Positions 977 through 45,900 of a DNA stretch of 64,000 bases are shown here, piece by piece. A model generated the notes under the pieces. It ran no database searches and had not been told where the DNA came from. It saw only the letters and a program-made list of their open reading frames with translations. The position numbers and the translations under genes are program-made. Numbering within the stretch: the stretch's first letter is position 1; every line of letters starts with the position of its first letter. Where the stretch lies: the NCBI GenBank assembly GCA_038209995.1, contig JBBQXD010000002.1:136428-200427 (forward strand), given 5' to 3'. This DNA is from Candidatus Limnocylindria bacterium. GTDB taxonomy: Bacteria > Chloroflexota > Limnocylindria > QHBO01.

Positions 977-2518
977 ATGGCGCGTCGCTCGACCGCAGTC
1001 TCCAACGCCGGTCCCGGCGATGACGAGGGGCTCGTTCGCGCCGCGGAGCACCTCCTCGGGGACCGTCGCCTGCTGATCGCCACCAACCGCGGGCCGGTGA
1101 GCTTCGCTGCCGGCGCGGACGGGTCCTTCCGACCCCGCCGCGGCTCGGGCGGCCTCGTCACCGCCCTCGGCCAGATCAACCGGCGCGTGGCGCTCACCTG
1201 GGTCGCGGCGGCCATGGGCGAGGGGGACCGCCGTGCGGCGGCGGATCCGAAGCGGATCGACGCCGCGGTGGCCGACGCGCGCCTGCGGCTCCGCTTCGCC
1301 ACCGTCGAGCGCAGCGTCTACGAAGCCGCGTACAACGTCATCGCCAACCCGCTGCTGTGGTTCCTCCAGCACCAGATGTGGAACCTTCCCGAACGGCCAT
1401 CGATCGACGTCGCGACGATGCGCGCCTGGGAGCAGGGCTACGTCCCCATGAACGAGGCGGTGGCACGCGCCATCCTCGCCGAGGTGCCGCGCCGCGACCG
1501 TGCACCGCGGATCATGCTCCATGACTACCACCTCTACCTCGCCGCGGCCACCATCCGCCGCGCGCGCCCGGATGCCGTCCTCAGCCACTTCACCCACATC
1601 CCGTGGCCACCGTCGTCGATCTGGCAGGTGATGGCGCCCGCGATCCGGGAGGGCATCGTGGCCGGCCTCGCGGCGAACGACGTCGTCGGCTTCCAGACCG
1701 CGCGCTACGCGCACAACTTCCTGCGCACCGCGGAGTCGTTCCTGCACGGCGCGACCGTCGACTACCGCGCCGGCACCGTGACGGGGGCCGATGGGCACGT
1801 GGCCCGCGTGCGCGCCTATCCGATCAGCATCGACGTCGAGGCGACGCGCCGCATCGCCGGCTCCGCCCGCGCCCGGCGTCGCGCTGAGCAGCTGCGGGCG
1901 GAGGCACGCGGGCCGATCATCGTCCGCGTCGACCGCCTCGAGCCGTCGAAGAACATCCTCCGCGGCTTCGCCGCCTTCGAGGCGCTCCTGCAGCGGAACC
2001 CGCGCTACCGCGGCCAGGTCACCTTCCTCGCCTTCCTCGTGCCGTCGCGGACGGGCCTGCGCGAGTACGGCCACTACGCTCGACAGGTGCAGGCGACGAT
2101 CGACCGCATCAACGCCCGCTTCTCGCGCGCCGGGCATCGGCCGATCCAGATCTTCTTCGAGAACGACTACGCGCAGGCGCTCGCCGGTCTGTCGGTGGCC
2201 GATGTCGTGCTCGTCAATCCCCTCGTCGACGGCATGAACCTGGTCGCCAAGGAGGCCGTCATCGTCAGCGGCCGCAACGCGGCGATCGTCCTGTCCGAGA
2301 CGGCCGGGGCACACGACCAGATGGCCGAGGGCGTCATCTCGGTCGCGCCGGCCGACGTGGTCGGCACCGCCGATGCGCTGCGCGACGGCCTCGAGATGCC
2401 GGAGGCGGAGCGCGCGGCGCGTCTCGACCGGCTCCGCGCCGGCGTCGAGCGCGAGGACATCGCCTGGTGGCTGCGCCGCCAGCTCACCGAGCTGGCGGAG
2501 ATCGTCGAGCGCCGCTGA
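977..2518 (+). CDS. otsA: alpha,alpha-trehalose-phosphate synthase (GT20 family)
   Basis: 513 aa ORF with OtsA-like blocks (LIATNRGPVSF, GGLVTAL, HDYHLYL, VGFQT, VNPLVDGMNLVAKE). It begins 5 nt after the nuoN stop. Confidence 0.75.
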   Translation: MARRSTAVSNAGPGDDEGLVRAAEHLLGDRRLLIATNRGPVSFAAGADGSFRPRRGSGGLVTALGQINRRVALTWVAAAMGEGDRRAAADPKRIDAAVADARLRLRFATVERSVYEAAYNVIANPLLWFLQHQMWNLPERPSIDVATMRAWEQGYVPMNEAVARAILAEVPRRDRAPRIMLHDYHLYLAAATIRRARPDAVLSHFTHIPWPPSSIWQVMAPAIREGIVAGLAANDVVGFQTARYAHNFLRTAESFLHGATVDYRAGTVTGADGHVARVRAYPISIDVEATRRIAGSARARRRAEQLRAEARGPIIVRVDRLEPSKNILRGFAAFEALLQRNPRYRGQVTFLAFLVPSRTGLREYGHYARQVQATIDRINARFSRAGHRPIQIFFENDYAQALAGLSVADVVLVNPLVDGMNLVAKEAVIVSGRNAAIVLSETAGAHDQMAEGVISVAPADVVGTADALRDGLEMPEAERAARLDRLRAGVEREDIAWWLRRQLTELAEIVERR

Positions 2519-3326
2519 GAGGTTCGCGCGCGAGCTCGGACAGCAGCGCGACGAGCGCCGCCGGAGATGCCAGGACGGCGTCCGCGGCGTCGGCCACGGC
2601 CTGTGGCACCTCGGGGCCGCCACCGACGGCGAGGATCGCGGCGCTGAGCTCCCCCGCGGCACGCAGCTCGGCGGCGGCGCGGAACATATCGAGGTCGGTC
2701 ACGTCGTCGCCCGCCACGACGAGGCCGCGCAGCCCGAAGCGCATCACAACGGCACGCACGGCGCCGCCCTTGTCGCCCGCTCCCGCCGGACGGAGCTCCA
2801 CGCTCATCCGGCCCTCGCGCACCTCGATCCGGTCGTCCGCGGCGCCCGCGAGGGCGGCGACGATCCGGTCCCGTGCGGCGACCGGGTCCGCGGCGCGGCG
2901 GTAGTGGACCGTCCCGGAGAGGCCCTTCTGGTCGAGCCGGACGCCCGGATCGCCGGCCGCGACCCGCGCCGCGCGCATCCAGCGCGCGAGCGGCCTCGCG
3001 ACCCACTCCAGGCCAGGTGCCGCCAGCGGCTCGACGGTTCCCGGCGCAAGCCACTCCAGCCCGTGGTTGCCGACCACCAGCAGCTCGTCGAGGCCGGCGA
3101 TCGCGCGCGCGTCGCGCGCCGCACGCCCGGTCACGATCCCGACCACCGCCAGGCGCCGCGTGAGCGCGCCGAGCGCATCCGCGGCGCCATCCATGAGCGC
3201 CGCCGCGTGGGGATCGGCCACGATCGGCGCGAGCGTCCCGTCGAGATCGGTCAGCAGCCCTGCCGGCTCGGCGCCAAGCGCGGCACGGGCCAGGACGAAT
3301 GCGGGGTTGGGCATCGGTGAGGTCAT
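2484..3326 (-). CDS. otsB: trehalose-6-phosphate phosphatase (HAD superfamily)
   Basis: HAD motif I 'LLTDLDGTLAPIV' and C-terminal 'GDDVTDLDMF' are present. The likely start is the internal ATG (MTSPMPNPAF...) at about 3326; the ORF-track upstream extension is Arg-rich. Its 3' end overlaps otsA convergently by about 35 nt. Confidence 0.65.
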   Translation of the reverse strand: MTSPMPNPAFVLARAALGAEPAGLLTDLDGTLAPIVADPHAAALMDGAADALGALTRRLAVVGIVTGRAARDARAIAGLDELLVVGNHGLEWLAPGTVEPLAAPGLEWVARPLARWMRAARVAAGDPGVRLDQKGLSGTVHYRRAADPVAARDRIVAALAGAADDRIEVREGRMSVELRPAGAGDKGGAVRAVVMRFGLRGLVVAGDDVTDLDMFRAAAELRAAGELSAAILAVGGGPEVPQAVADAADAVLASPAALVALLSELAREPLSGARRSPPAR

Positions 3327-3344: not shown

Positions 3345-4052
3345 GTGAGGCGATTCCGATCCGCCGGCACGTTGGTGCCGCTCGTGCTGGCCGTGGTGGG
3401 CATCGGCCTCATCATCGCAGGCCAGCTCGACCTCGGCCGCACGCCCACGTCGAGCCTGCCGCCGATCCCCGACCCGACGAAGACCCCGCTGGCCGTGGTG
3501 AGCGCCACCGCGTCGAGCTCTGCCGCGCCGACCCCCTCGCCGTCGCCAACCTTCGGATCGACGGCCAACGCGGTCCAGCTCGAGATCCGATCGGTCGGGA
3601 TCAACGTCCGCGTCTTCGAGTCGGGCTCGGCGGCCAACGACGACGACCCCGGCCTGGCGGGCGCGTACATCCTCCGCGACTCGTCGCAGCCGGGGCGTGG
3701 CACGAACTCGTACATCTTCGCGCACGCCCGCAACGTCCCGGTGCCGCTCTTCAAGAACCTGTGGAACGTCCAGCTAGGTGCGGAGGTGCGCATTCTCATG
3801 TCGGATGACATCGTGCTCCGCTACCGGGTGACCGAGATCCATCCGAACGTGTCCTGCCCCGATGACCGCGCGCCGCCCATCCCGCCTGACGCCGAGCCGC
3901 TCGCCCTCAAGTACGCGAAGAGCGACTGCAGCGAGGGCGCCGCCTGGACGCGGTCGACCGACCACGAGCGGCTGACGATGCAGACGAGCCAGGGCTTCAA
4001 CCGCAACTGGGGGGAGCTGATCATCGTCGCCGACCCGATCCTGCCCGGCTAG
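3345..4052 (+). CDS. secreted sortase-family protein with catalytic Cys replaced by Ser (pseudo-sortase?)
   Basis: N-terminal TM/signal anchor (LVPLVLAVVGIGLIIAG) and Pro/Ser/Thr linker. Sortase-like blocks 'LEIRSVGINVRVFESGS', His in 'YIFAHARN', and conserved Arg in 'NRNWGELIIVA'. The TLxTC position reads 'LTMQTSQ', with no Cys. Confidence 0.5.
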   Translation: MRRFRSAGTLVPLVLAVVGIGLIIAGQLDLGRTPTSSLPPIPDPTKTPLAVVSATASSSAAPTPSPSPTFGSTANAVQLEIRSVGINVRVFESGSAANDDDPGLAGAYILRDSSQPGRGTNSYIFAHARNVPVPLFKNLWNVQLGAEVRILMSDDIVLRYRVTEIHPNVSCPDDRAPPIPPDAEPLALKYAKSDCSEGAAWTRSTDHERLTMQTSQGFNRNWGELIIVADPILPG

Positions 4053-5629
4053 GTCGCCGCCGCCCTGAGGCGCCGTCTGCCGGGCAGGAGCAGTGCGGGC
4101 ACCACGGTGACGATCGCCACGCCGAGGGCGATCGTGATCACGAGGTTGAGGACCAGCGCCGCCTGGCCCTTCGACCACGTCTCGAGGAGGTCGACGAGGG
4201 CGAGGCTGGCCCGCGGGTCGACGCCGACGAATTCGGGGCGGCCCAGCTCGCGCACGAGCGCATCGCGCCGCGCCGGATCGTTCACGAGCGCGGTGAGCTC
4301 GTCGATCCGGTTCTGACCGATGCTGGTGAGGATCGCGAGGCCCACGCTCATGCCGATCGTCCGCGTGATCTGGAGCATCGCGCTGGCAACCCCGTAGGCC
4401 GATGCGCCCGCCGCCTCGACGGCGGCCGTCGCGCGCGGGCTCACCGTGAGCCCGAAGCCGGCGCCGTAGATGGCGAGGTCGCGCGCCAGCCGCGGCAGGT
4501 CAGTGTCGGTCCCCCAGCCGAGGGCCAGCACCAGCCCGACGATGCTCACCAGCGCGCCGAGCACCGTCGTCGGGCGCTCGCCGACGAGGGCGGTGATCGC
4601 ACCGCCCGCCACCGCTCCCACCGCGATCGCGGCGGTGAGCGCCGTCAGGGCGGCGGCCGCCTGGCCATCGGTCCCGAACAGGACGCGGCTCACGAACACC
4701 GGTCCGCCGATGATCGCGGTTGCCAGCGTGTACCCGGTCAGCAGGCTGACCGCGTTCGCGGCCGAGAAGCCGCGGTTGGCGAAGAGCCTCGGGTTCACCA
4801 GCGGGTGGGCGCGGCGCAGCTCGAGGCGGACGAAGGCGACGCCGGCGAGGGCGGCGAGGACCAGCGCGCCGACGACGAGCGGATGTCCCCAGCCGTGGGC
4901 GCCGGTCAGCGTCAGGCCACCGACCCCCGCGACGAGCGCGAGCGTGGCGAGGAGCGCTCCGCCGAGATCGATCCCTCCCCTCGCCCGCGGGGTCTCCACA
5001 CCGCCAGCGATGACGTAGATCAGGAAGAAGGTGATGATCGCGGCCGGCACGTTGAGGAAGAAGATCCACTGCCAGCTGACGAGGTCGAGGCCCGGGATCG
5101 GCAGGCTGACGTTCTGCAGGACCCAGGCGCCATAGCTCGGCCCGATCGCCATCCCGACGAACGTGGCCGCGCCCTCGATCCCCAGTGCCGCCGCGCGGGT
5201 GCGGCCGCTGAACAGGTGGCTGGCGAGCGCCATCGAGAGCGGCACGAGCGCTCCGCCGCCAAGGCCCTGGACGACGCGCGCGGCGATCAGCCAGTCGAGC
5301 CCGGCCGCCGGCCCGGCGACGCGCGCGATGCCCGCCCCGGCGCTCCCCAGCGAGAACAGCGCGAGGGCCACCACGTACAGCCGCCGCGCGCCCCACAGGT
5401 CGGCGGCGCGCCCGGCGAGCGGCATGGCCACGATGTAGGCCAGGAGATAGGCATTCACGATCCAGCTGGCGTGGCCGAGGTCGGCCCAGCCGCCGAAGCT
5501 CGCCACGATCGACGGCAGGGCGATCGCGACCACCATGAGCTCCACGCCACCCAAGAAGACGCCGAGCGACGCGGTGATCAGAACGGCCCATGCCGCGACC
5601 GGATGGAGCCGGGTCGTCACCTCGCTCAC
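4049..5629 (-). CDS. MFS transporter, DHA2/EmrB-QacA-like (about 14 TMS)
   Basis: Long hydrophobic ORF with MFS signature regions (LPSIVASFGG..., GRAADLWGARR). The probable GTG start overlaps the stop of the upstream permease (CTGTGA), indicating translational coupling; the Arg-rich upstream ORF extension is rejected. Confidence 0.7.
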   Translation of the reverse strand: MSEVTTRLHPVAAWAVLITASLGVFLGGVELMVVAIALPSIVASFGGWADLGHASWIVNAYLLAYIVAMPLAGRAADLWGARRLYVVALALFSLGSAGAGIARVAGPAAGLDWLIAARVVQGLGGGALVPLSMALASHLFSGRTRAAALGIEGAATFVGMAIGPSYGAWVLQNVSLPIPGLDLVSWQWIFFLNVPAAIITFFLIYVIAGGVETPRARGGIDLGGALLATLALVAGVGGLTLTGAHGWGHPLVVGALVLAALAGVAFVRLELRRAHPLVNPRLFANRGFSAANAVSLLTGYTLATAIIGGPVFVSRVLFGTDGQAAAALTALTAAIAVGAVAGGAITALVGERPTTVLGALVSIVGLVLALGWGTDTDLPRLARDLAIYGAGFGLTVSPRATAAVEAAGASAYGVASAMLQITRTIGMSVGLAILTSIGQNRIDELTALVNDPARRDALVRELGRPEFVGVDPRASLALVDLLETWSKGQAALVLNLVITIALGVAIVTVVPALLLPGRRRLRAAAT

Positions 5630-6315
5630 AGGTCGGCCCGGCTGGCGACGACGAGCGCGGCCCCCCAGACGACGGCACCTGCGGCGAGCGAGACGCCCGC
5701 GGCGCGCAGCGCCAGGGCGGTGACCGGCGCGTCGGCCCCGGGAGCGGCGAGCAGGGCGAGGCCGGCGCCCGGCGCGGCGACGCTCGCGGGAACGAGCAGC
5801 ACGATCGCGACGAGCCATCCCGCCACGAGGACCATGGTCGCCGCCATTGCGGGGCGCGGGGCGGCGACGAGCCCGGCAAGGGTCGCGACCCCGATCGCCG
5901 CCGGCGCGGCGGCGGCGGATGCCGCGAGCGCCGCCGGCAGCGCCGCGTCATGCGTCGGCATCACCGCGAGGCCGCCCAGGACCAGGGCACTGATGCCGGA
6001 GATCGCGAGGCCGACGATCAGCGCCAGCGAGCCGGCGAGCAGCCACCCGGCGAGCAGCGAGGAGCGCGGCACGGCGCGGGCGACCAGCCACCCGGCGAAC
6101 CCGCGCCGCCGGTCGGTGGCGACGGCACCCGCGACCAGGCCCGCCCCGACCGCCATGGCGACGGCCACGCCGAGCGCGAGCGAGCGCCACGCCGTTGCGG
6201 GTGCGGTGGCGACCAGCGCGCCGCCGCTCGCGAAGGCAACGAGCCCGCCGAGCAGACGGAAGCTGATCCACAGCTCGCGGAGCGAGAGCCCCGCCAGCGT
6301 CGCAACCTGCGTCAT
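5626..6315 (-). CDS. ABC-2 type transporter permease (6 TMS)
   Basis: Start 'MTQVATLAGLSLRELWISFRLLGG...'. Its ATG overlaps the stop of the upstream ATPase-like gene (ATGA). Six hydrophobic segments. The ORF-track N-terminal extension to 7080 is an Arg-rich artefact. Confidence 0.6.
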   Translation of the reverse strand: MTQVATLAGLSLRELWISFRLLGGLVAFASGGALVATAPATAWRSLALGVAVAMAVGAGLVAGAVATDRRRGFAGWLVARAVPRSSLLAGWLLAGSLALIVGLAISGISALVLGGLAVMPTHDAALPAALAASAAAAPAAIGVATLAGLVAAPRPAMAATMVLVAGWLVAIVLLVPASVAAPGAGLALLAAPGADAPVTALALRAAGVSLAAGAVVWGAALVVASRADL

Positions 6316-7190
6316 CGCGCCTCGGGTCGCGTGCCGGCGTCGCGAGGGCTCGCCGTTGCTCTGCTCGGCCGCTCGACGCCAAGTGCGGCGAGCTGCTCCA
6401 ACCCGCCGAGCGTCAGCGGCAGGCCGCGTCGCGTGAGCTCTGTGACCGGCGCGTGCACGACCACCCGTCCCTGGCCGATGAATGCCACCTCGCGGGCGAA
6501 GCCCTCCTCGGCGGCCGGCGTGCGGCTGGCCACCACGAGCGTCGCGCGCGGCTCGAGCGCGCCCAAAATCCGCCACCGGTCCCACGGGTCGAGGGCCCGC
6601 AGCGGCTCGTCGAGGACGAGGATCTCCGGGTCGGCGACGAGCGCCGCCGCCAGCGCCACGAGCTCCCGGTGGGCGGTGGCCGCGCGGCGCAACGGCCGGT
6701 CGAGGTCGGGGGTCGTGGCGAGGCCGGCGCCGGACATCGCACGCTCGATCCGCACGGGCCGCTCGGCGTGGTCGAACCCGAGCAAACGCGCAGACAGCTC
6801 GAGCGCCTCGCGGCCCGACATCCAGCCGGGGAGCGCCGAGGTCGGAGGCACGTAGCCGACCCGTCGCGCCCATCCGCCGGGGAGGTCGTCGCTGATGGGC
6901 AGGCCGGCAAGATGAATCGTGCCCTGTTCGGCGCGGGCCACGCCCCCGAGGATGCGGAGCAGCATGGTCGCCGATTCCGAGGGCCGCGAGGCGACCAGGA
7001 GGCGCGCGCCGACCGGCACGATGAGGTTGAGCCCGTCGAGGAGGGTGACGCCGCCGGCCCGGCGCCGCAGCCCGCGGCATGCGATCGCCGAGGGCCGCAG
7101 ATGGCGCAGCGTGCCTGACGCCCAGAGCGCCTCGGGGGTCGACATCGTCACAGTCGGCACGGTAGCACGACGCCTTGACGGCTCCGCCAT
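6312..7190 (-). CDS. ABC ATPase homolog with degenerate Walker A, Q-loop and signature motifs (likely catalytically inactive)
   Basis: Aligns along its length to ABC NBDs. Walker A position reads 'LVASRPSESAT' instead of GxxGxGK(S/T); Q-loop 'YVPP' instead of YLPQ; signature 'ATAHRE' instead of LSGGQ. Walker B 'ILVLDEP' is retained. The alternative start ATG at about 7145 (MSTPEAL) is more likely. Confidence 0.6.
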   Translation of the reverse strand: MAEPSRRRATVPTVTMSTPEALWASGTLRHLRPSAIACRGLRRRAGGVTLLDGLNLIVPVGARLLVASRPSESATMLLRILGGVARAEQGTIHLAGLPISDDLPGGWARRVGYVPPTSALPGWMSGREALELSARLLGFDHAERPVRIERAMSGAGLATTPDLDRPLRRAATAHRELVALAAALVADPEILVLDEPLRALDPWDRWRILGALEPRATLVVASRTPAAEEGFAREVAFIGQGRVVVHAPVTELTRRGLPLTLGGLEQLAALGVERPSRATASPRDAGTRPEAR

Positions 7191-7203
7191 CGGTCCCGTA
7201 GCA

Positions 7204-7217
7204 TAAGCGTCCGCTTA
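7204..7217. promoter_or_regulatory. imperfect palindrome TAAGCGTCCGCTTA in AT-richer divergent intergenic region; candidate ArsR-type operator
   Basis: 12 of 14 positions are palindromic. It lies in the 61-bp gap between the ABC operon (minus) and the arsR-like gene (plus), which is locally AT-rich relative to the 70% GC background. Confidence 0.3.
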
Positions 7218-7251
7218 CATAAGCAGATCTTTGATAAAGAGTGACTCAGGC

Positions 7252-7608
7252 ATGACGCTTCCCCGTGACCGCGTTGACGGCGACCTGCGCCGGCTCCGCG
7301 TGCTCTACCGCGCCCTCGGCGACGCGACCCGGCTGCGGGTGATCGGCATCCTCGCCGAGGCCGGACCGATGCCGGTCGGGCAGCTGTCCATCCGGGTGGG
7401 GCTCTCTCAGCCGCTCATCAGCTGGCACCTCCGCATTCTGCGCGTCGCGGGCCTCATCGATACCCAGAAGCAGGGACGCGAGACGCTCTGCCGCCTCCGG
7501 CTCGCGGCGTTCGAGGAGCTCCACGAGGTCGAGGCCCGGCTCGTGGGCGGCACCAGCGGCGTGACGATGGCGGGGACGCAAGGTCCGGAGGTCCCCGATG
7601 TCGGCTAG
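7252..7608 (+). CDS. ArsR/SmtB-family HTH transcriptional regulator
   Basis: 'LRVLYRALGDATRLRVIGILAEAGPMPVGQLSIRVGLSQPLISWHLRILRVAGLI' is a classic ArsR winged-HTH. The ORF-track start at 7231 is TTG; the in-frame ATG at 7252 is preferred. Confidence 0.65.
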   Translation: MTLPRDRVDGDLRRLRVLYRALGDATRLRVIGILAEAGPMPVGQLSIRVGLSQPLISWHLRILRVAGLIDTQKQGRETLCRLRLAAFEELHEVEARLVGGTSGVTMAGTQGPEVPDVG

Positions 7609-8269
7609 CCACTCCCGCGCCCGCGACCTCGCGCGCGGTGACTCGCTCGCCCCGAGCTGGCTCAAGCAGGCCGGTCGGGCCATCCTCCATCCCATCGTGC
7701 GCGGCGCGCTGGCGGTCGGGATGACCGCGAACGCGATCACCATCATCGGCCTCGCCATCACCGCGGTCGCGGCGGTCCTGATTGGCACCGGCAACCTGCT
7801 CGTCGGGGCTGCGGTGCTGCTCGCGGGCTCGGCGCTCGATGCGGTCGACGGCGAGCTCGCGCGGGCCCAGGGCGGCGGCACCGCATTCGGAGGCTTCCTC
7901 GACTCCACCCTCGACCGCGCCGGCGAGGCGATCCTCTACCTGGGGCTGGCCGCATTCCTGCTGCAGTTCACCGCGGAGCCGATCCTTCCGGTGCTCGGGG
8001 TGAACATCGCCCTCGCCGGATCGTTCATCGTCAGCTACGCCCACGCGCGCGCCCAGGGGATCGGCCTCGAGGCATCGATCGGGCTGGCGCCGCGACCGGA
8101 GCGGCTGGCACTCATCATCGCCGGCATCGCGCTGGCGGGCCTCGGCTGGATGCCGGGCCTGCTCGGCGCCATCGGCCTCATCGCGGTCCTCACCGTGGCG
8201 ACCGCCTTCCAGCGCATCTGGCACGTCTACCGGCTCACTGCCAGCGGGACCGTCGCAGACGATCACTGA
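7598..8269 (+). CDS. CDP-alcohol phosphatidyltransferase (phosphatidylinositol-phosphate synthase-like)
   Basis: Motif D(x)2DG(x)2AR(x)8G(x)3D(x)3D is seen as '[27 protein letters not shown]'. Polytopic; GGAGG SD 6 nt upstream of the ATG. The next gene is ino1, consistent with a PIP synthase using inositol-1-phosphate. Confidence 0.7.
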
Positions 8270-8291
8270 TCAGCAGAAACGGGAGAACAGC

Positions 8292-9521
8292 GTGGCGAAC
8301 AACGGGAAGCATGCCGGCAACGGCAAGGGCGCGAGCAACGGGCACCGGCCGAGTGACGGCAAGGTGCGGGTCGCGATTGTCGGCGTCGGAAACTGCGCCA
8401 GCAGCCTCGTCCAGGGCAGGATCTACTACGCCGATGCGAAGCCGGGCGACTTCATCCCTGGCCTCATGCACGTCGACCTCGGCGGCTACCACGTCCGCGA
8501 CATCGACTTCGTGGCCGCCTTCGACATCGACCGCGAGAAGGTCGGCAAGGACCTCTCCGAGGCGATCTTCTCGGGGCAGAACAACACCTACAAGTTCGCG
8601 GACGTCCCGCATCTCGGCGTCCCTGTCGAGCGCGGGATGACGCATGACGGCCTCGGCAAGTATCTCTCGCAGGTCATCCAGAAGGCGCCCGGGCCGACGG
8701 CCGACATCGTCGGCATCCTTAAGGAGCGCAAGGTCGACGTCATGGTCAGCTACCTGCCGGTCGGCAGCGAGCAGGCCACGAAGTGGTACGCCGAGCAGGC
8801 GCTCCAGGCCGGCGTCGCCTTTGTGAACGCGATCCCGGTCTTCATCGGTCGCGAGCCCTACTGGCAGCGCCGCTTCGCGGAGGCGGGGCTGCCGGTCATC
8901 GGCGACGACATCAAGAGCCAGGTCGGGGCCACCATCACGCACCGGGTCCTCACCCGCCTCTTCATGGATCGCGGGGTCCGCATCGACCGCACCTACCAGC
9001 TGAACTTCGGGGGCAACACCGACTTCCTCAACATGCTCGAGCGCGAGCGGCTGGAGTCGAAGAAGATCAGCAAGACGAACGCGGTCACCTCCATGATCGA
9101 CTACGAGATCGCCGATGACGACGTGCACGTCGGTCCCTCCGACTACGTGCCGTGGCTGAAGGACCGCAAGTGGTGCCACATCCGAATGGAGGGCACGACG
9201 TTCGGCGACGTGCCGCTCAACCTGGAGCTCAAGCTCGAGGTCTGGGACTCGCCGAACAGCGCCGGAGTCATCACCGATGCCATCCGCTGCGCGAAGCTCG
9301 GCCTCGATCGCGGCCTGGCCGGCACGCTCGTCGCGCCGTCGAGCTACTTCATGAAGAGCCCACCGATCCAGATCCACGACGACATCGCCTATAACCGGGT
9401 GGAGGCGTTCATCCGCGGTGAGGACAACGAGACGCTGGTCGGGACCGAGAAGCCGGCGAAGCGGCAGCTCCGGAAGCTCGCCGAGCCGAAGAGGGCGAAG
9501 GCCGCTGCCGCCGCCCGCTGA
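8292..9521 (+). CDS. ino1: myo-inositol-1-phosphate synthase
   Basis: N-terminal NAD-binding '[18 protein letters not shown]' and overall bacterial/archaeal MIPS-like sequence of 409 aa. GTG start with GGGAGA SD. Confidence 0.85.
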
Positions 9522-9525
9522 CACC

Positions 9526-10542
9526 GTGACGGCTCCGACCTCGACGGGCGGGCGCGCGGCGTCCGTCCGTCGCGGCGTGCCGCAGCGGCCCGAGCGCAAG
9601 CGGGAGCTGCTCACCTACTGGGCCTACCGAGCCGCCGAGCGGCTCATCGGCGCGCTGCCGCGCGGCATCGTGCTGCCGATCGCCGCCGCGGCGGGCAATG
9701 CCGCCCACGATCTTTCGGCCGACAAGCGGGCCGTGATGCAGGCGAACATCAGCCAGGCGATGGGCCTCGCGCCGAACGCGCCGCCCGTCGTGCGCGCCAC
9801 GCGCCGCGCGTTCCGCAACTACGGGAAGTACCTCGCCGACGTCATGCGCCTGCCGGCACTCTCGGAGGCCGAGGTGGCGCGCCTGATCGCGATCGACAAC
9901 GTCGAGGTCCTCCCCGAGGCGCGCAGCGGCGAGACCGGGGTCCTGGTGTGCACCGTCCACGTCGGGGGCATGGACATGATCGGTCCGGCGCTGCACCGGG
10001 CGGGCGAGGAGCTCCATGTCGTCGCCGACGACACCACGTACGGGCGGCTCTACGACCACCTCAAGGCCGAGCGCGCCCGTCACGGGCTGCACCTCATCGG
10101 TTGGCGCAACCTGCGGGCGCTCTTCAGGGTCCTCCGCCGCGGCGGCAGCCTCGTCCTGTTCTGCGATGGCGGCTACCGCCCTGGCGACGTGCCGGTCGAG
10201 TTCCTCGGCGCGCCCACGACGTTCCCCGCCGGTCCGGCGACGCTCTCGGCTCGCTCCGGTGCGCCGATGCTCCCCGTCTGGTGCCAGCGCACCGGTCGCG
10301 ACACGTTCATCGCCCGCGGCCTGCCGACGATTCGCACCGAGGGCGACCACCCCGCGTCGATCCAGCGCGCCACCCAGGCGCTCGCCGACGCCCTGGGCGC
10401 GGTGATCGCCGAGGACCCGGGGCAGTGGTACCTCTTCCGCGCCGTCTGGCCACAGACCGATGCGGAGCGCGCCATGGCCGCCGCCGCCCTCGAGCGAGCC
10501 CGACGCGGCGAGGACTGGACGGTGCGCGAGGCGACCGCGTGA
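9526..10542 (+). CDS. lysophospholipid/lipid A-type acyltransferase (LPLAT; PatA-like)
   Basis: HtrB/LpxL-family-like sequence 'VCTVHVGGMDMIGP' ... 'LVLFCDGGYRPGD' ... 'FPAGPATLSARSGAPMLPV'. Probable GTG start just after the ino1 stop. Confidence 0.65.
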   Translation: MTAPTSTGGRAASVRRGVPQRPERKRELLTYWAYRAAERLIGALPRGIVLPIAAAAGNAAHDLSADKRAVMQANISQAMGLAPNAPPVVRATRRAFRNYGKYLADVMRLPALSEAEVARLIAIDNVEVLPEARSGETGVLVCTVHVGGMDMIGPALHRAGEELHVVADDTTYGRLYDHLKAERARHGLHLIGWRNLRALFRVLRRGGSLVLFCDGGYRPGDVPVEFLGAPTTFPAGPATLSARSGAPMLPVWCQRTGRDTFIARGLPTIRTEGDHPASIQRATQALADALGAVIAEDPGQWYLFRAVWPQTDAERAMAAAALERARRGEDWTVREATA

Positions 10543-11432
10543 TGCGATCCCTCGCCCTGCGCATCGGGCTCCGCCTGGCGGACCTCATCATTCCCAGCCT
10601 GCCGGCGCGGGTCGCGTATGCGATCGCCGACGCCGGTGGCCGCGCCTGGTACCGACGCGACGCGACGCGGCGCTCCCGGGTCACCGATGGCCTGCAGCGC
10701 ATCCAGGCCGCGCTCGGTCGCCCGGCCGATGGACCCGCCCTCCGTCGCCTCGTCGAGCGCGCCTTCGTCGAGTACGCCCGCTACTACGTCGAGCTGCTGC
10801 GCGCACCGCACTACCGGCCCCGCGACGTGCGGCGCCACGTGTCGGTGGACGACTGGGAGACGCAGGCGCCGCTCTTCCGCGGCGGAGCGGTCGTCGCGCT
10901 TCCCCACCTCGGCAACTTCGAGCCGTTCGGCCTGTTCGTCGAGGCGGAGGGGATCACCGGCGTCGCGCCGATCGAGGAGACGGAGCCGCCGGAGCTCTTC
11001 GACTTCCTCCGCACACGGCGCGCGGCCGGTCGCGGCATGCGGGTCGTGGCGCTCTCGCGCGCTCGGCGACCGATGATCGACGCGCTGCACGGCGGCGAGA
11101 TCGCCGCCCTCGTGGCAGACCGCGACCTGGCGGCCGACGGCGTCCCGGTCACGATGTTCGGCCACCCCGTCACGCTGCCTGCCGGCCCGGCGTGGCTCGC
11201 CGTCACCACCGGGCGACCGCTCATCATCGCCCGCTGCCTGCGAACCGGACCTGACCGTTTCGCGGCGCGCACATGGCAGCTCGACACCGCCGAACGCGAC
11301 GGCGAGGCGCGCCGGCAGCGGATCGAGCGCATCACGGCAGCGATGGCGCAGGCGTTCGAGGAGGCGGTCGCGGAGGCTCCCGAGCAGTGGTTCGCCATCT
11401 TCCAGCCGTTCTGGACCGATCAGCGCACATGA
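10542..11432 (+). CDS. second LPLAT acyltransferase paralog
   Basis: Paralogous to the previous gene (ALPHLGNFEP..., LVADRDLAADGVPVTMFGHPVTLPAGPAWLA). Its ATG overlaps the upstream stop (TGATG). Confidence 0.65.
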   Translation: MRSLALRIGLRLADLIIPSLPARVAYAIADAGGRAWYRRDATRRSRVTDGLQRIQAALGRPADGPALRRLVERAFVEYARYYVELLRAPHYRPRDVRRHVSVDDWETQAPLFRGGAVVALPHLGNFEPFGLFVEAEGITGVAPIEETEPPELFDFLRTRRAAGRGMRVVALSRARRPMIDALHGGEIAALVADRDLAADGVPVTMFGHPVTLPAGPAWLAVTTGRPLIIARCLRTGPDRFAARTWQLDTAERDGEARRQRIERITAAMAQAFEEAVAEAPEQWFAIFQPFWTDQRT

Positions 11433-12220
11433 GAAAGTCATCAGTCTCGAGCGGGCGCACGACCGGGTCGGGGCGCCGCCCGCGCGGGGGCGGGGCGCGC
11501 GGCAAGGCGGACATGCACCTCCACACCCTGTGGTCCGACGGAACGGCTGCCGTCGCCGAGCTCCTCGACTGGGTCGAGCAGGCGACCGATCTCGACGTCA
11601 TCGCCATCACCGACCATGAGCGGATCGACGGCGCGCAGCGCGCGCTGGAGCTCCACGCGCGGGGCGGCTACGCCTTCGACCTCGTCGTTGGCGAGGAGGT
11701 CACGACCCGGCGCGGCCACCTGCTGGCGCTCTTCCTGACCGATCGCGTCCGCGCCCTGCGCCCGCTCGCTGAGACCCTCGCCGCGGTCCATGCCCAGGGC
11801 GGGCTGGCGATCGCGGCCCATCCGCTTGCGCCGCTCACCCCGTCACTCGGCGCCCGATCGCTCCGCGCGGCCCACGACGCCGCCGATCCGGGGCTGCGCC
11901 TCGACGGGATCGAGCTCATGAACCCATCCGCCGCCGGCCGCTCGCGGCGCGGGACGCGCAATCGGATGAACGCCGAGCTCCTCCACCTGCCCGCGGTCGG
12001 GAACAGCGACGCCCACATCCTCGAGGCGGTCGGGACCGCCTGGACCTGGTTCGACGGGGTCAGCGCCGAAGACTATCGAACCTCGCTCGAGGCGAGCACC
12101 ACCGAGCCGGACGGGGCGTTCTGGACAAGCTGGCACAACGTGCGCATCTACGGCCGCCAGCTCGTCGCCAAGGGACGACACCTGCGGCATACTCTGCGCC
12201 CCACAGGAGAGTGGCGATGA
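11429..12220 (+). CDS. PHP-domain (polymerase/histidinol-phosphatase family) metal-dependent phosphoesterase
   Basis: 'DMHLHTLWSDG' (HxH), 'IAITDHE', 'AIAAHP' and 'GNSDAHI' are PHP metal-binding motifs. ATGA overlap with the upstream acyltransferase stop; an alternative start ATG lies at about 11513. Confidence 0.6.
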   Translation: MRKSSVSSGRTTGSGRRPRGGGARGKADMHLHTLWSDGTAAVAELLDWVEQATDLDVIAITDHERIDGAQRALELHARGGYAFDLVVGEEVTTRRGHLLALFLTDRVRALRPLAETLAAVHAQGGLAIAAHPLAPLTPSLGARSLRAAHDAADPGLRLDGIELMNPSAAGRSRRGTRNRMNAELLHLPAVGNSDAHILEAVGTAWTWFDGVSAEDYRTSLEASTTEPDGAFWTSWHNVRIYGRQLVAKGRHLRHTLRPTGEWR

Positions 12221-13413
12221 CGCAGCTCGAGGCCGCGCCCGCCCGCGAGGCGTCGCCGGCACCCCGGGATCCGCGGGGGATGCTGAAGGTGGGGATCGTG
12301 AGCCCCTACGGGTACCCGCATCCGGGTGGCGTGAACGACCACGTCCGCAACCAGTACGAGCAGCTCACCGCGCTGGGGCATGACGCCTGGATCATCACGA
12401 GCAAGTACGGCCGCCAGCGGGAGAGCGAGGGGCACATCATTCGCCTCGGCACCGGCTGGGCGTTCCCGGCCAATGGCAGCGTGGGACGCGTGACGCTCAG
12501 CCTTCGGTTCAAGGAGCAGGCGCGCGAGCTCCTTGATGCCGAGCGCTTCGACGTTCTCCACTTCCACGAGCCGCTGGTGCCGTTCCTGTCGCCGACCCTG
12601 CTCGACGCCTCGCGCACCGTCAACGTCGCCACGTTCCACGCCTTCGGCGGCTTCAGCCCCAGCTACTGGGTCGGCCGCCGCTTCGCCGGTCGGCTGGCCA
12701 AGCGGCTCCATGGGCGGATCGCCGTCTCCGGCGCCGCACGCCACTTCATCTCTCGCTACTTCCCCGGCGACTACGAGATCATCCCCAACGGCGTCGACCT
12801 CGGCCTCTTTGCCGATGCGGAGCCGTACGACGAGCTCCGCGACGGCACGCTCAACATCCTGTTCGTCGGGCGCTTCGAGGAGCGCAAGGGCCTCACCCAT
12901 CTCCTCAAGGCCTATCACCGGCTGCGGAAGCGGCGCATCGACGCCCGGCTGCTCGTGATCGGGACGGGACCCAAGTCGCGCGAGTATCGGCGCTACATCG
13001 GCCTGCGGGGGATCCGCGACGTCGAGTTCCTGGGCCGCGTGAGCGACCACGACAAGGCCCGCTATTTCGCATCGGCGGACATCTTCTGCGCGCCGGCGAC
13101 CGGCCAGGAGAGCTTCGGCATCGTCCTGCTCGAGGCGATGGCGGCCGGCGTCCCGATCGTCGCGTCCGACATCCACGGCTACAAGCAGGTCGTGCAGCGC
13201 AACGTCCAGGGCCTTCTCGTCGAGCCGCGCAACCAGCGCGCGCTCGCCGCCGGCCTCTACGCGCTTGCGCGCGACCCGGAGCTCCGCCACGAGATGGGCG
13301 AGGCGGGTCGCGCGACGGCACCCGACTACAGCTGGCCGCGGGTCACGGAGCGGATCGTCGAGTTCTACCACGACGTCCGCGCACGCGTGGGCGCGGAGCC
13401 TTCCCGCCGCTAG
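12211..13413 (+). CDS. pimA: GT4 glycosyltransferase, phosphatidylinositol alpha-mannosyltransferase (PimA)-like
   Basis: Blocks shared with mycobacterial PimA: 'PYGYPHPGGVNDHV', 'VLHFHEP', 'GRIAVSGAA', 'IPNGVD', 'FVGRFEERKG', and 'ADIFCAPATGQESFGIVLLEAMAAG' (EX7E region). Confidence 0.75.
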   Translation: MAMTQLEAAPAREASPAPRDPRGMLKVGIVSPYGYPHPGGVNDHVRNQYEQLTALGHDAWIITSKYGRQRESEGHIIRLGTGWAFPANGSVGRVTLSLRFKEQARELLDAERFDVLHFHEPLVPFLSPTLLDASRTVNVATFHAFGGFSPSYWVGRRFAGRLAKRLHGRIAVSGAARHFISRYFPGDYEIIPNGVDLGLFADAEPYDELRDGTLNILFVGRFEERKGLTHLLKAYHRLRKRRIDARLLVIGTGPKSREYRRYIGLRGIRDVEFLGRVSDHDKARYFASADIFCAPATGQESFGIVLLEAMAAGVPIVASDIHGYKQVVQRNVQGLLVEPRNQRALAAGLYALARDPELRHEMGEAGRATAPDYSWPRVTERIVEFYHDVRARVGAEPSRR

Positions 13414-17392: not shown

Positions 17393-17461
17393 TGCCGTTG
17401 ATCTCCTGTCGGTGGCGGATGCGCCGGCCCGATCCCTCGTGCAGGACCGGACCGACCCACC

Positions 17462-18376: not shown

Positions 18377-18779
18377 GCGGTGCTCCTTGTCGTCCTCCGC
18401 CGGGTCAGTCATCGGTTCAGGTGGCCTCGTGGCTCGTTCGTCCCGGACGCAGAACGAGCCGTGATCCCGGGAGGGACCACGGCTCTTGCGCGATGCCTGC
18501 GGGGCATCAAAAAACCGTGGTCCGGATCCGGCCCACGGCTCGTGGCTGTCGTTGGCGGCAGTGCCGCCGATCCATCAGCTCGAGGTGGGCGCAGATCTCC
18601 CGCCTGTGGCGCCACTGAGAGGCGCCTTCGTGCGCGCGGTTGCGCAGATCGGAAGATTCATGGCCAGTTGCCGCTCTCCAATGATGAGTGGTTGCCGGTC
18701 CGCCAGGGACGCTGAGGCCGCGCGCGGGCGCGGCCGGTTCGAATGACGGAGCGGCAGTCTACGTCCGCGCCGCCGGGCG

Positions 18780-23949: not shown

Positions 23950-23964
23950 CGAAGGCGACGCCGG

Positions 23965-44131: not shown

Positions 44132-44206
44132 GGAGCGTCGCCGGAGTGTAGCACCGGATTCCTTCGCGCCCGGTTACGCCGCCATATGCGTTTCGCAACG
44201 CGCCCC

Positions 44207-45112: not shown

Positions 45113-45115
45113 CGG

Positions 45116-45850: not shown

Positions 45851-45900
45851 CGGTCTGTGCCGGGTCATCCTAGCATCGGTGGCCGGGCGGGCAGGATCGG

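Follow-up and report, generated by a model that had tools for sequence, protein, structure and literature searches.

A translationally coupled operon of a rebuilt ABC nucleotide-binding domain, a type V permease and an Rv1410-like MFS transporter in Candidatus Limnocylindria

Candidatus Limnocylindria (Chloroflexota; soil lineage), known here from sequences that all derive from uncultured MAGs, keep a translationally coupled operon that encodes a pseudo-nucleotide-binding domain (pNBD), a type V permease and a DHA2-type MFS transporter of the Rv1410 kind. The pNBD is a rebuilt ABC NBD domain, conserved across the lineage. We tentatively read the operon as a proton-driven lipid exporter with a putative non-catalytic ABC accessory, a possibility that is weighed below against five others.

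The three-gene operon

In the window, i.e. the whole 64,000-nucleotide stretch of DNA that was analysed, the three genes lie on the minus strand as intact open reading frames, with a GC3 of 0.90–0.94 in the called frames: pNBD (6312..7151, 279 aa from GTG 7151), the small six-helix permease (5626..6315, 229 aa) and the MFS transporter (4049..5629, 526 aa). A preliminary description of this DNA had claimed the ATGA overlap between pNBD and permease and the GTGA overlap between permease and MFS, and with them the coupling of an ABC ATPase homologue to an ABC-2-like permease and a DHA2-type MFS; both overlaps were found, and are largely kept in six related loci. At the pNBD/permease junction, four of these loci show ATGA or GTGA, L002 has the genes overlapping by one base, and L174 has them 23 nt apart; permease and MFS are joined by GTGA in five loci and by TTGA in L002. 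Whether loci were searched from the pNBD or from the MFS, the three genes remained together with the permease/MFS overlap of 4 nt intact, error-prone long-read assemblies excepted, and no locus found from the MFS lacked the pNBD and permease genes. The three-gene arrangement thus recurs in the well-assembled related loci examined, and the block persists in loci without the neighbouring otsAB genes. Nevertheless, the whole 12-kb neighbourhood is syntenic within the lineage, so that gene order alone is a weak sign of functional linkage. Four-base overlaps are also common in this genome (e.g. ArsR/PIPS and MFS/sortase). A sortase gene adjoins the MFS gene.

Regarding the beginning of the operon, an alignment of 11 loci has one start column common to all, [G/C/A]TG-ACG-AGC, which yields the N-terminus M-T-S-S-T-P-D-A-L-W and corresponds to GTG 7151 in the window, the best start; NCBI places the start at ATG 7145 (277 aa). 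The initially proposed ATG 7190, 39–45 nt too far upstream, is almost certainly wrong as a start, since the promoter of the divergent operon (7175-7204) falls within the extension and the 11-locus column lies elsewhere.

An ABC NBD with a rebuilt ATP site

Alignment to PF00005, which had been suggested as a way to score motif loss, gave 38.5 bits for the pNBD over HMM positions 25-136 only, which leaves the Walker A stretch of the model unaligned, versus 115.8 bits over positions 1-137 for a canonical NBD of the same window. We then compared 100 family members (the pNBD plus 99 homologues on contigs of Candidatus Limnocylindria type) with 12 canonical relatives, which retain the motifs, although their Q-loop position may be Glu. 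In the family, the A-loop Tyr/Phe is replaced by Val/Gln, and the Walker A GPNGAGKTT by S-R-P-[E/D]-x-S-A-S (SRPSESAT in the window), in which three glycines and the lysine are gone and a proline and an acidic residue stand inside the loop; the Lys column holds Ala in 84, Gly in 12, Thr in 2 and Pro in 2 of the 100 sequences, and Lys in none. The Q-loop residue is Pro in 85/100, the signature Ser is Gly in 90/100 (the window reads AATAH), and the D-loop Ser and the H-loop His are both Arg, in 93/100 and 90/100, respectively. Walker B is retained (its Asp by 91 and its Glu by 88 of the sequences), as is a Ser/Thr at the Mg-ligand position, at the end of the P-loop. The earlier identification of an ABC NBD homologue with lost ATP-site motifs and a kept Walker B is therefore borne out by this census and by the fold; as to the Q-loop, a residue has been lost in the family as stated, but the closest canonical relatives carry Glu, not Gln.

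No shifted Walker A motif was seen: a regex scan for GxxGxGK[ST] found it in all canonical matches and in none of the family proteins P0001-P0095, in agreement with the alignment. The AlphaFold2 model of the pNBD (pLDDT 86, pTM 0.81) reaches a pLDDT of about 97 at the motif regions, and the alignment stays in frame, from which we conclude that the motifs are neither shifted nor lost by a frameshift in a miscalled N-terminal region. The same in-frame alignment, the conserved replacements and a dN/dS of 0.24-0.35 ruled out a pseudogene. Foldseek retrieved ABC NBDs as best matches of the model (E 1e-18), and a RasP-EcsA model was among the fold matches; PDB sequence matches were ABCA3, Rv1218c and NosF (E 1e-17 to 1e-14), and the best sequence and profile matches overall were DrrA (TIGR01188), NodI, ABCA-family NBDs, Rv1218c and NosF. 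By sequence, the nearest canonical relative is P0097, a member of an ordinary pair of an NBD and an ABC2_membrane_2 protein.

Judging from the residues replaced, canonical ATP binding or hydrolysis by the pNBD would not be possible. Activity as a non-canonical ATPase, with nucleotide bound or hydrolysed through the Walker B Asp/Glu, the Ser/Thr at the P-loop end and the new arginines, is highly improbable. The Walker B Asp (91%) and catalytic Glu (88%) are kept for no obvious structural reason, the Mg-ligand position is retained and several arginines could contact phosphates; nevertheless, the P-loop has lost its glycines and lysine and gained a proline and an acidic residue, the A-loop aromatic, signature Ser and H-loop His are gone, and no ABC NBD that works through such a site is known to us.

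Degeneration of one site is a well-known feature of some ABC exporters, and heterodimers of this type (TM287/288, BmrCD, CFTR and ABCG5/G8) also retain, in functional form, an NBD whose catalytic motifs are lost. In them, the degenerate site still has its Walker A and binds ATP, and a second, active site is present, whereas the pNBD, the sole NBD of its operon, has neither Walker A nor signature. Two canonical NBD genes are present in the window, and one of them, or another elsewhere, could in principle supply a partner that restores one working ATP site. We regard such a heterodimer as highly improbable, since the loss of both Walker A and signature damages both composite sites, one NBD gene with one permease gene is the usual homodimer layout, and the window's two other NBDs, only 27% identical to the pNBD, each have their own permease (an ABC-2 permease and FtsX), no orphan canonical NBD being found in the 64 kb.

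About 100 intact, full-length homologues of the pNBD were collected, with identities down to about 40%, and at least 90% of members share the replacement motifs as well as motifs at the N- and C-termini. Among the latter is a family-specific N-terminal peptide, M-T-[S/M]-S-T-P-[D/E]-A-L-W-A-S, which is modelled with low confidence. The three best conserved ten-residue blocks (residues 61-70, 0.84; 191-200, 0.87; 221-230, 0.84) all fall in the former ATP pocket, where conserved arginines are found (R63 in 100%, R169 in 95%, R198 in 93% and R223 in 90%). Since conservation is highest in this pocket, to speak of a "remnant" is mistaken, and the pNBD represents a conserved family, not a one-off degenerate copy. 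In established ABC structures the segment around the Q-loop contacts the permease, and the pNBD retains a conserved segment in this region.

The permease and the rates of evolution

The permease falls below the Pfam ABC-2 threshold (13 bits, cut-off 31.6), and 5 of its 21 homologues have a precomputed PF12698 match. Its AlphaFold2 model (pLDDT 90, pTM 0.88) was nonetheless closest in Foldseek to NosY (TM-score 0.63-0.69), followed by Rv1217c, ABCG2 and ABCA, which points to a small, NosY-like type V ABC fold; the initial ABC-2 assignment thus misses the sequence threshold and agrees with the predicted fold. An N-terminal helix (LxLRELWISFRLL) and a cytoplasmic TM2-TM3 motif (E/D-R-R-R-G-x-x-G-W-L-x-x-R-A-V-P-R-S) are conserved, and the transmembrane helices poorly so.

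For the closest pairs, dN/dS was 0.24-0.35 for the pNBD, 0.41-0.50 for the permease and 0.07-0.10 for the MFS. Identities, with the three proteins compared within one set of genome pairs, were 43-49%, 33-43% and 66-75%, respectively. Purifying selection on the pNBD and permease continues, while the two evolve 3-5 times faster than the MFS and are the fastest genes of the block. This pace, together with the poorly conserved permease helices, speaks against a TM-TM interface that is tight and specific, and against a substrate cavity in the permease.

These rates bear on two other readings. The pNBD and permease may form an ATP-independent complex with a role of its own, the MFS acting alone and the overlaps reflecting a compact operon. 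The sharply different rates of the ABC pair and the MFS, the weakly conserved helices and the frequency of four-base overlaps in the genome are consistent with such independence, which we consider rather unlikely, given that the permease/MFS overlap is kept in every well-assembled locus (TTGA in L002, GTGA elsewhere) and that the MFS was never seen without the pair in the loci searched. The two genes could also be relics of an ancestral ABC-2 exporter that lost its ATPase, persisting under relaxed selection with no real function. Their speed relative to the MFS, their higher dN/dS and the frameshifts or fusions in some relatives would fit decay, but this is very improbable: the homologues remain intact at great divergence with their motifs conserved, dN/dS is well under 1, and the frameshifted copies all occur in long-read assemblies, which show indels in neighbouring essential genes as well (L009).

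The MFS transporter

The third protein matches TIGR00711 (195.5 bits) and PF07690 (109 bits), in line with the DHA2-type transporter described beforehand, the 14 TMS being inferred from the DHA2 alignment. It is a DHA2 family member whose closest solved relative, as judged by sequence comparison, is by far the Rv1410 homologue 8pnl_A, a "putative triacylglyceride transporter" (160 bits; EfpA 88, EmrB 75), and JGI annotates two orthologues as "triacylglyceride efflux pump". The reference features of Rv1410, namely a TM1 carboxylate, the TM4 Arg/Gln, the TM11 ion-lock Arg and an insert between TM11 and TM12 (PMC10576003), are conserved. Across 120 sequences (119 orthologues and the window), E30, R118, Q121, E152 and R423 show no or almost no variation (E30 is present in 119), and a conserved hydrophilic insert of ~47 residues (about 440-487) precedes the last TM. 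In contrast to Rv1410, the TM1 acidic residue is Glu, not Asp, and the ion-lock Glu is off its aligned position, which is occupied by F157, with E152 five residues earlier. Homology to Rv1410 and EfpA, together with the gene neighbourhood, suggests a lipid or glycolipid as cargo in place of a drug, and we do not regard the transporter as a generic drug pump.

The control region and the divergent lipid operon

The pump operon shares a control region of ~100 bp (7152..7251) with a divergent operon. A promoter scan identified a sigma-70-like promoter of the ArsR/PI operon, TTGACG-18-TAGCAT (7175-7204, plus strand), one being found versus 0.1 expected from shuffles. On the minus strand, an extended -10, TGcTACCGT (7167-7159), lies only 7 nt upstream of GTG 7151, so that the pNBD mRNA is near-leaderless. 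The AT-rich boxes TCTTTATCAAA (7240-7230), GCTTATGTAAGC (7224-7213; a palindrome) and GCTTATGCTA (7208-7199) are invariant or nearly so in the 11 aligned loci, in which the pNBD proteins are only about 45% identical, and may be operators.

The divergent operon begins with an ArsR/SmtB-family winged-helix regulator (7252..7608, plus strand, 118 aa; PF01022 44 bits, NF033788 71.8 bits with a cut-off of 55), translationally coupled to the PIP synthase gene through GGAGGT-N6-ATG(7598) within the last ArsR codons. The phosphatidylinositol/acyl-PIM-like glycolipid operon that follows (7598..13413, plus strand), outside the pump and considered here as context, encodes a PIP synthase (NF045883, 141 bits, below the cut-off of 170), an inositol-1-phosphate synthase, two PatA-like acyltransferases (123 and 161 bits to the NF005919 PIM acyltransferase model, below its cut-off of 209), a PHP/CehA-like metallohydrolase and a GT4 glycosyltransferase, in the same order in all related loci. 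Control from a divergent ArsR-type promoter region, as first proposed, has to be qualified: the two operons do share this region, with its conserved promoters and palindromes, but the ArsR heads the lipid operon and is not a dedicated pump regulator. It lacks the classic metal sites, a single Cys being conserved and neither an alpha-3 CxC nor an alpha-5 His cluster present, so that the earlier suggestion to test metal stress has no specific support.

SdpI sequesters the ArsR-family repressor SdpR at the membrane, and an analogous sensor or regulatory module is conceivable, in which the rebuilt pNBD pocket, lined by arginines at the pre-P-loop strand, P-loop, signature, D-loop and H-loop, would bind another, putatively anionic ligand (candidates being inositol phosphate, the PIP headgroup or another phospho-metabolite) and the membrane-anchored pNBD-permease complex would gate the MFS or hold the ArsR-family repressor at the membrane. 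The best conserved part of the pNBD is this Arg-rich pocket, the adjoining operon makes inositol phosphate and PIP, and the N-terminal peptide, conserved yet modelled with low confidence, looks as expected of a docking motif. As in SdpR-SdpI, an ArsR-family regulator without metal sites lies beside genes for polytopic membrane proteins; here, however, it is co-transcribed with lipid biosynthesis genes, and its match to the SdpR subfamily is weak (44 bits), far under the cut-off of 100. The pocket arginines may also just pair with conserved acidic residues. Overall, we consider a sensor unlikely.

Comparison with known systems

The type V two-gene systems NosFY, DrrAB/NatAB and Rv1217c-Rv1218c have, like the present operon, adjacent overlapping genes for an NBD and a six-helix permease, and the resemblance to NosFY and Rv1217c-Rv1218c extends to the pNBD sequence (NosF, Rv1218c) and the predicted permease fold (NosY, Rv1217c). 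Differently from two-gene ABC-2 systems, the ATP-contacting motifs of the pNBD are all replaced save Walker B, the DUF4162 C-terminal domain is absent and an N-terminal peptide of its own is present, the permease fails the Pfam thresholds, and a translationally coupled MFS gene is added.

In EcsAB-RasP, BceAB-BceS, CcmABC and SUR-Kir6.2, the ABC NBD-TMD unit is not a transporter in its own right but serves another membrane protein in an accessory, regulatory or sensory capacity, and resembles in this the accessory role that may be proposed here. All of these still use ATP, and none, to our knowledge, is paired with an MFS transporter.

The lprG-rv1410c (P55) operon is also small and combines an MFS gene of DHA2 architecture with a non-MFS partner, and the present transporter shares with Rv1410 the TM1 carboxylate, TM4 Arg/Gln, TM11 Arg and long insert between the last two helices. 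Lipoarabinomannans are lipoglycans built on PIM anchors. They are reported as LprG/Rv1410 cargo (PMC6519032); here, genes for PI/PIM-type lipids adjoin the MFS operon. The partner, in contrast, is an ATP-dead ABC module instead of the periplasmic lipoprotein LprG, and the host belongs to Chloroflexota and has a sortase gene beside the pump.

A possible lipid exporter with an ATP-independent ABC module

For a proton-driven lipid exporter with an ABC accessory, the reading that we tentatively prefer, the pNBD and permease would still form an NBD2-TMD2-like membrane complex, probably locked in one state by protein-protein contacts, in which the new arginines of signature, D-loop and H-loop would face acidic residues, either kept or newly acquired, in Walker B and P-loop. 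Transport energy would come from the proton gradient through the MFS, and the cargo may be a lipid or glycolipid, by homology to Rv1410 and EfpA. The ATP-dead module, which holds the operon slot of LprG in mycobacteria, could serve as a cytoplasmic platform anchored to the membrane, a scaffold on which lipid is loaded, or a gate, and the intergenic region common to both operons may, under ArsR control, coordinate pump expression with PI/acyl-PIM-type lipid synthesis. The conserved triad with its overlaps, the conserved replacements, the confident folds, purifying selection, the homology to Rv1410, the PI/PIM-like neighbour operon, the conserved intergenic promoters and palindromes and the assignment of every other NBD of the window to its own permease count in favour of this reading; the misplaced ion-lock Glu, the Glu in place of Asp in TM1, the faster evolution of the pNBD and permease and the weak conservation of transmembrane helices count against it. 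With its ATP-site motifs lost and an MFS gene coupled, the system is, as had been proposed, not a standard exporter, and the operon suggests that here an ABC scaffold operates independently of ATP.

The NBD-like subunit

Scanning of the window for open reading frames yielded three intact consecutive genes on the minus strand between positions 4049 and 7190, coding for a pseudo-nucleotide-binding domain (pNBD, 6312–7151), a permease (5626–6315) and an MFS transporter (4049–5629). The G+C content of the window is 73%, and GC3 in the three called frames (0.90–0.94) equals that of the neighbouring housekeeping genes. The pNBD protein matches PF00005 with 38.5 bits (cut-off 25), covering only HMM positions 25–136, and scores far below the cut-offs of all DrrA, NodI, RbbA and CcmA-type models of NCBIfam; its PDB matches in phmmer reach an E-value of 3e-17. 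The AF2 model, built from the family alignment, has a pLDDT of 86 and a pTM of 0.81 (pLDDT around 97 in the P-loop region), and Foldseek relates it to the NBDs of CbiO, MalK, FtsE and MacB (E 1e-18 to 1e-16). By profile and by structure pNBD thus has the fold of an ABC NBD, with a RecA-like core and a helical subdomain.

Searching 5.8 billion proteins retrieved about 95 homologues of pNBD (E 1e-169 to 1e-33), below which the score drops sharply to canonical ABC ATPases (E 1e-21 or worse). All family sequences come from uncultured MAGs and metagenomes, and those members that carry a name belong to MAGs of Chloroflexota or Candidatus Limnocylindria. The preliminary description had reported the loss of the ATP-site motifs together with retention of Walker B, and this was borne out by the partial PF00005 match and by a census of 100 family members aligned with 12 canonical relatives, ordinary ABC ATPases. 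Walker A, GxxGxGK[S/T], is present in 12/12 canonical relatives and in 0/100 family members; a regular expression for GxxGxGK[ST] likewise found no match in the homologues P0001–P0095, and matched every canonical protein retrieved. Where canonical proteins have G-P-N-G-A-G-K-T-T, the family has S-R-P-[E/D]-x-S-A-S-[M/L], the Lys column being occupied by Ala (84), Gly (12), Thr (2) or Pro (2). The A-loop Tyr/Phe is replaced by Val, Gln or a gap, the Q-loop Glu (Gln in one canonical relative) by Pro in 85/100, the signature Ser by Gly in 90/100 (the window copy, AATAH, is more divergent), the D-loop Ser by Arg in 93/100, with ALD retained, and the H-loop His by Arg in 90/100. Walker B is kept as LLLDEP, with its Asp in 91/100 and its Glu in 88/100 sequences.

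We considered whether the motifs might merely be shifted, with the true Walker A elsewhere, or whether an N-terminal frameshift might have led to a miscalled gene. Both explanations fail, because the alignment with canonical relatives is unbroken and in frame, the AF2 model is confident at the P-loop and Foldseek returns ABC NBDs; the replacements are, in addition, conserved in 100 homologues. Judging from its residues, pNBD probably makes no canonical use of ATP. Non-canonical nucleotide binding, for which the retained Walker B could be invoked, seems very improbable in a protein with every other ATP-site motif replaced.

The pocket has been rebuilt rather than left to decay. Of all 10-residue blocks in the family, the three with the highest conservation lie in this former ATP pocket: residues 61–70 (0.84), a strand plus the degenerate P-loop; residues 191–200 (0.87), Walker B and the D-loop; and residues 221–230 (0.84), A-S-R-Y-P-A-S-E at the H-loop. 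Besides an N-terminal peptide (see below), the family has conserved motifs of its own: G-W-A-R-R, which precedes the Q-loop strand, D-x-P-x-R-R-G-G, located at the signature site, and R-G-L-x-L-S-x-R-G-I, close to the C-terminus. In the closest pairs, dN/dS (Nei-Gojobori) is 0.24–0.35 for pNBD and 0.41–0.50 for the permease, against 0.07–0.10 for MFS, 0.09–0.13 for the ArsR regulator encoded divergently and 0.07 for Ino1; pNBD and permease therefore evolve 3–5 times faster than their neighbours, still under purifying selection. Identity to the window proteins, in matched genome pairs, follows the same order (permease 33–43%, pNBD 43–49%, MFS 66–75%, Ino1 around 88%). The fast evolution and the motif loss could be read as marks of a relic, which we regard as improbable given the purifying selection and the rebuilt pocket.

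The permease subunit

The permease scores 13 bits against PF12698 (ABC2_membrane_3; cut-off 31.6) and has no NCBIfam match; among 21 permease homologues a precomputed PF12698 match is found in 5. Its AF2 model (pLDDT 90, pTM 0.88) has NosY as best Foldseek match in the PDB, with a TM-score of 0.63–0.69 and a probability of 1.0 but an E-value of only about 2e-3, followed by Rv1217c, ABCG2 and ABCA proteins. The model thus points to a type V (ABC-2) ABC fold, with a predicted N-terminal amphipathic helix and six TM helices. Conservation is centred on the N-terminal helix (L-x-L-R-E-L-W-I-S-F-R-L-L) and on the loop after TM2 (E/D-R-R-R-G-x-x-G-W-L-x-x-R-A-V-P-R-S), which we take to resemble the coupling region of ABC-2 permeases (E-x-x-x-G-T-x-E-x-L-x-x-x-P-x-S-R), and the TM helices vary freely among homologues. 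Since the cytoplasmic coupling elements are the best-conserved parts, pNBD and permease may still form an ABC-like complex.

A canonical ABC-2 exporter pair is encoded at 16592–18412 on the minus strand (ABC_tran 115.8 bits, ABC2_membrane 73 bits), and provides an internal reference against which the weak pNBD score can be set. Recent duplication of this pair, 10 kb away, was ruled out as the origin of the pNBD and permease genes: the two NBDs share 27% identity, the permeases lack a profile match, no hhalign match being obtained between the permease and the PF01061 permease of the same window. The canonical NBD could in principle supply an active partner to pNBD in a heterodimer, which we regard as highly improbable. 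In known degenerate ABC sites Walker A is kept and the second site is active, whereas pNBD is the sole NBD of its operon and lacks both halves of the composite site. Elsewhere in the window, at 42656–46699 on the minus strand, we found an FtsE-FtsX pair and, after it, a CtpB-like S41/PDZ peptidase. The ORF given for FtsE has 527 amino acid residues; its true start is probably much later, because the NBD begins near residue 318.

The MFS transporter

The third gene product belongs to MFS_1 and appears to be of the DHA2 EmrB type, TIGR00711 being its best family (195.5 bits), yet under the cut-off of 230. All 12 PDB matches passing an E-value of 1e-5 are named as MFS efflux or export proteins, among them a Rv1410 homologue, EfpA (88 bits), EmrB (75 bits) and QacA (62 bits), which we take to be DHA2 transporters. 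The top match is 8pnl_A, a 'putative triacylglyceride transporter' (the Rv1410 homologue MHAS2168; 160 bits, E 8e-46), and two orthologues carry the JGI name 'DHA2 family, triacylglyceride efflux pump'. A crude hydropathy scan gave only overlapping segments, from which helices are not countable. The MFS-seeded search, aimed at remote homologues with another partner, listed 120 matches, all of them Limnocylindria-type orthologues with at least 73% identity.

We compared the residues described for Rv1410 in a census of 120 sequences, comprising 119 orthologues and the window protein. R118 and Q121, the Arg and Gln of TM4, do not vary, the ion-lock Arg of TM11 (R423) is present in 120/120 sequences, and the TM1 carboxylate is a Glu (E30) in 119/120, where Rv1410 has an Asp (D22 in the M. 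tuberculosis protein, D35 in MHAS2168). The D22N/D35N mutants were compromised, in agreement with previously studied mutants that include D22E (PMC10576003). In Rv1410/MHAS2168 the ion lock pairs a TM5 Glu (E157 in MHAS2168) with the TM11 Arg (R426), and periplasmic extensions of TM11 and TM12 hand the lipid to LprG (PMC10576003, Remm et al. 2023). The proteins studied here depart from Rv1410/P55 in two respects, the placement of the ion-lock Glu and the lack of an LprG partner. Phe or Tyr stands at the TM5 site (F157 in the window protein), and E152, five residues before it, is invariant; no lipoprotein gene was present in any related locus examined, the operon partners being pNBD and permease. 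Some 47 hydrophilic residues (about 440–487), strongly conserved, are inserted before the last TM helix, where Rv1410 has its TM11/TM12 extensions. By its best PDB match the transporter is thus Rv1410-like, and its sequence places it closest to Rv1410 homologues, suggesting a relationship of the Rv1410/P55 type.

Conservation of the gene arrangement

The preliminary description proposed translational coupling of the three genes and a survey of other genomes for their arrangement. The overlaps were found as described, with an ATGA at 6315–6312, in which the pNBD stop overlaps the permease ATG, and a GTGA at 5629–5626, in which the permease stop overlaps the MFS GTG; the order pNBD-permease-MFS was retrieved in every locus examined. 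Related loci were seeded by pNBD homologues (42–70% identity) and by three MFS orthologues selected solely for their long contigs. Pattern scans of genome and metagenome contigs gave 3 and 0 true family loci, respectively, both being swamped by generic Walker B matches. All loci contain ArsR, the divergent pNBD-permease-MFS genes and then a convergent sortase. The 4-nt overlap between permease and MFS is kept in all well-assembled loci, and overlap of pNBD and permease is usual (1 nt in locus L002, a 23-nt gap in locus L174). The closest canonical relative of pNBD belongs to an ordinary two-gene ABC-2 system without MFS.

In four loci, L001 (6777–7488), L009, L090 and L173 (2583–4004), all from long-read assemblies, ORFs of pNBD, permease or MFS are frameshifted or fused; L009 is also broken in Ino1, PIPS and OtsA, and these frameshifts and fusions are probably indel errors. 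NBD-permease or permease-MFS fusions (locus L173 and protein P0291) were accordingly set aside as Rosetta-stone evidence, coming from long-read assemblies with indels in neighbouring genes.

The sortase gene of the window (3345–4052, plus strand) converges on MFS with a 4-nt 3' overlap, the same in all related loci, and no terminator was detected between the two genes. Genes for trehalose-6-phosphate synthase and phosphatase (otsA and otsB, 977–3300) flank the block in the window and in the majority of relatives. L172 and L174 lack them; there nuo genes directly follow the sortase and the block is intact. One locus, L008 (DATHTR010000104.1), is labelled Candidatus Angelobacter sp. (Acidobacteriota), is fully syntenic with the Limnocylindria loci and has 74–87% identity to the window in Ino1, MFS and OtsA, so that its label looks like a taxonomy or binning conflict. 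The window also contains, on the minus strand, a tmRNA (38360–38724; RF00023, 147 bits), the sole Rfam match, and a very long ORF of 1803 amino acid residues (19099–24510).

That pNBD and permease function independently of MFS is rather unlikely. Three observations argue against a tight complex with MFS: the genes differ in evolutionary rate, the TM helices of the permease are poorly conserved, and the whole region is syntenic in the Limnocylindria lineage.

The control region and the divergent lipid operon

The pNBD operon and a PI/PIM-like lipid operon have a common regulatory region (7152–7251). The start of pNBD had been placed at ATG 7190, a codon that lies upstream of an extended -10 element (TGcTACCGT, 7167–7159). 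In an intergenic alignment of 11 loci, all share the start column [G/C/A]TG-ACG-AGC-TCG-ACG-CCG-GAC-GCG-CTG-TGG, which in the window corresponds to GTG 7151; NCBI calls ATG 7145 (P0001, 277 amino acid residues). ATG 7190 was ruled out in favour of GTG 7151 or ATG 7145, on the basis of this column and of promoter overlap. The encoded peptide, M-T-S-S-T-P-D-A-L-W, is conserved at the protein level, because synonymous third positions vary; its low AF2 confidence (pLDDT around 55) would fit a tail docking onto a partner protein.

The sole sigma-70-like promoter in 3.5 kb, TTGACG-18-TAGCAT (7175–7204, plus strand; 0.1 expected by chance), points toward ArsR and lies partly within 7190–7151. Three AT-rich boxes vary little or not at all from locus to locus: TCTTTATCAAA; GCTTATGTAAGC, which is palindromic and has the family consensus CTTATATAAG; and GCTTATG-TA, which overlaps the -10. 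The GCTTATGTAAGC and GCTTATGCTA boxes are candidate ArsR binding sites, and the region may consist of back-to-back promoters with ArsR operators. Rfam detected no structured RNA in the region, and no intrinsic terminator was identified.

ArsR (7252–7608) is an ArsR/SmtB winged helix-turn-helix protein (NF033788, 71.8 bits, cut-off 55; PF01022, 44 bits). In nine aligned orthologues we observed neither an alpha-3 CxC nor an alpha-5 Asp/His cluster, only one Cys and one His being conserved; metal sensing by ArsR is therefore not supported. It is the first cistron of an operon on the plus strand (7252–13413), followed by PIP synthase, Ino1, two PatA-like acyltransferases, a PHP-type hydrolase and a GT4, and the same genes lie on the ArsR side, overlapping ArsR, in related loci. 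Translation of PIP synthase is coupled to that of ArsR, with GGAGGT-N6-ATG inside the final ArsR codons; at its C-terminus ArsR has a conserved tail, E-V-x-D-V-G, at the very place where the Shine-Dalgarno and ATG of PIP synthase lie. Both acyltransferases have the PIM acyltransferase as best model (123 and 161 bits, cut-off 209). The PI/PIM pathway is usually linked to Actinomycetota. The PHP/CehA-like metallohydrolase (11273–12220, plus strand) is kept inside the operon in all relatives and could be the phosphatase that forms PI from PIP, an activity that, to our knowledge, has no assigned gene in many organisms.

A rebuilt pNBD pocket could also serve for ligand sensing or for sequestering the repressor, a possibility that we regard as less likely.

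Functional implications

An ABC NBD homologue devoid of an ATP site, conserved and under selection, is coupled here to a type V permease and a Rv1410-like MFS transporter. Its components are those of known superfamilies (ABC NBD fold, type V permease fold, DHA2 MFS and ArsR); their combination matches no curated family in Pfam or NCBIfam, and we found no precedent in the literature searched for a pseudo-ATPase ABC protein or an ABC plus MFS lipid operon. ABC modules that aid other membrane proteins are represented by EcsAB-RasP, BceAB-BceS, CcmABC and SUR, all of which still use ATP.

We tentatively favour, as quite possible, that the pNBD-permease pair keeps forming an ABC-like complex, without canonical ATP use, and that this complex would serve as an accessory to MFS, which would export a lipid or glycolipid driven by protons. 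A more specific proposal, which we consider rather unlikely, is that pNBD2-permease2 would form a scaffold indispensable to a Rv1410-type proton-driven MFS, as a subunit of it, for exporting phosphatidylinositol-based glycolipids, constituting an ATP-independent hybrid of ABC and MFS transporters. The ABC part would then contribute structure or sensing and MFS the energy, and the NBD pocket would act as a permanent protein latch or as a novel binding site whose ligand might be an inositol phosphate or PIP headgroup. Should the ABC scaffold turn out to be a subunit that an MFS lipid exporter cannot do without, or a new ligand sensor, its novelty would be considerably greater.

Roughly 100 database entries bear the label 'ABC-type multidrug transport system ATPase' for proteins that almost certainly are no ATPases. 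What defines ABC transporters is the ATP-driven dimerization of their NBDs, and pNBD keeps the fold, the permease and a conserved pocket without the ATP-binding residues, thus constituting a natural experiment on a nucleotide-free ABC scaffold. The coupling of a Rv1410-like MFS beside a PI/acyl-PIM operon would offer a tractable non-mycobacterial system for asking how inositol glycolipids and related lipids leave or cross the cytoplasmic membrane, and which partner proteins such MFS exporters have.
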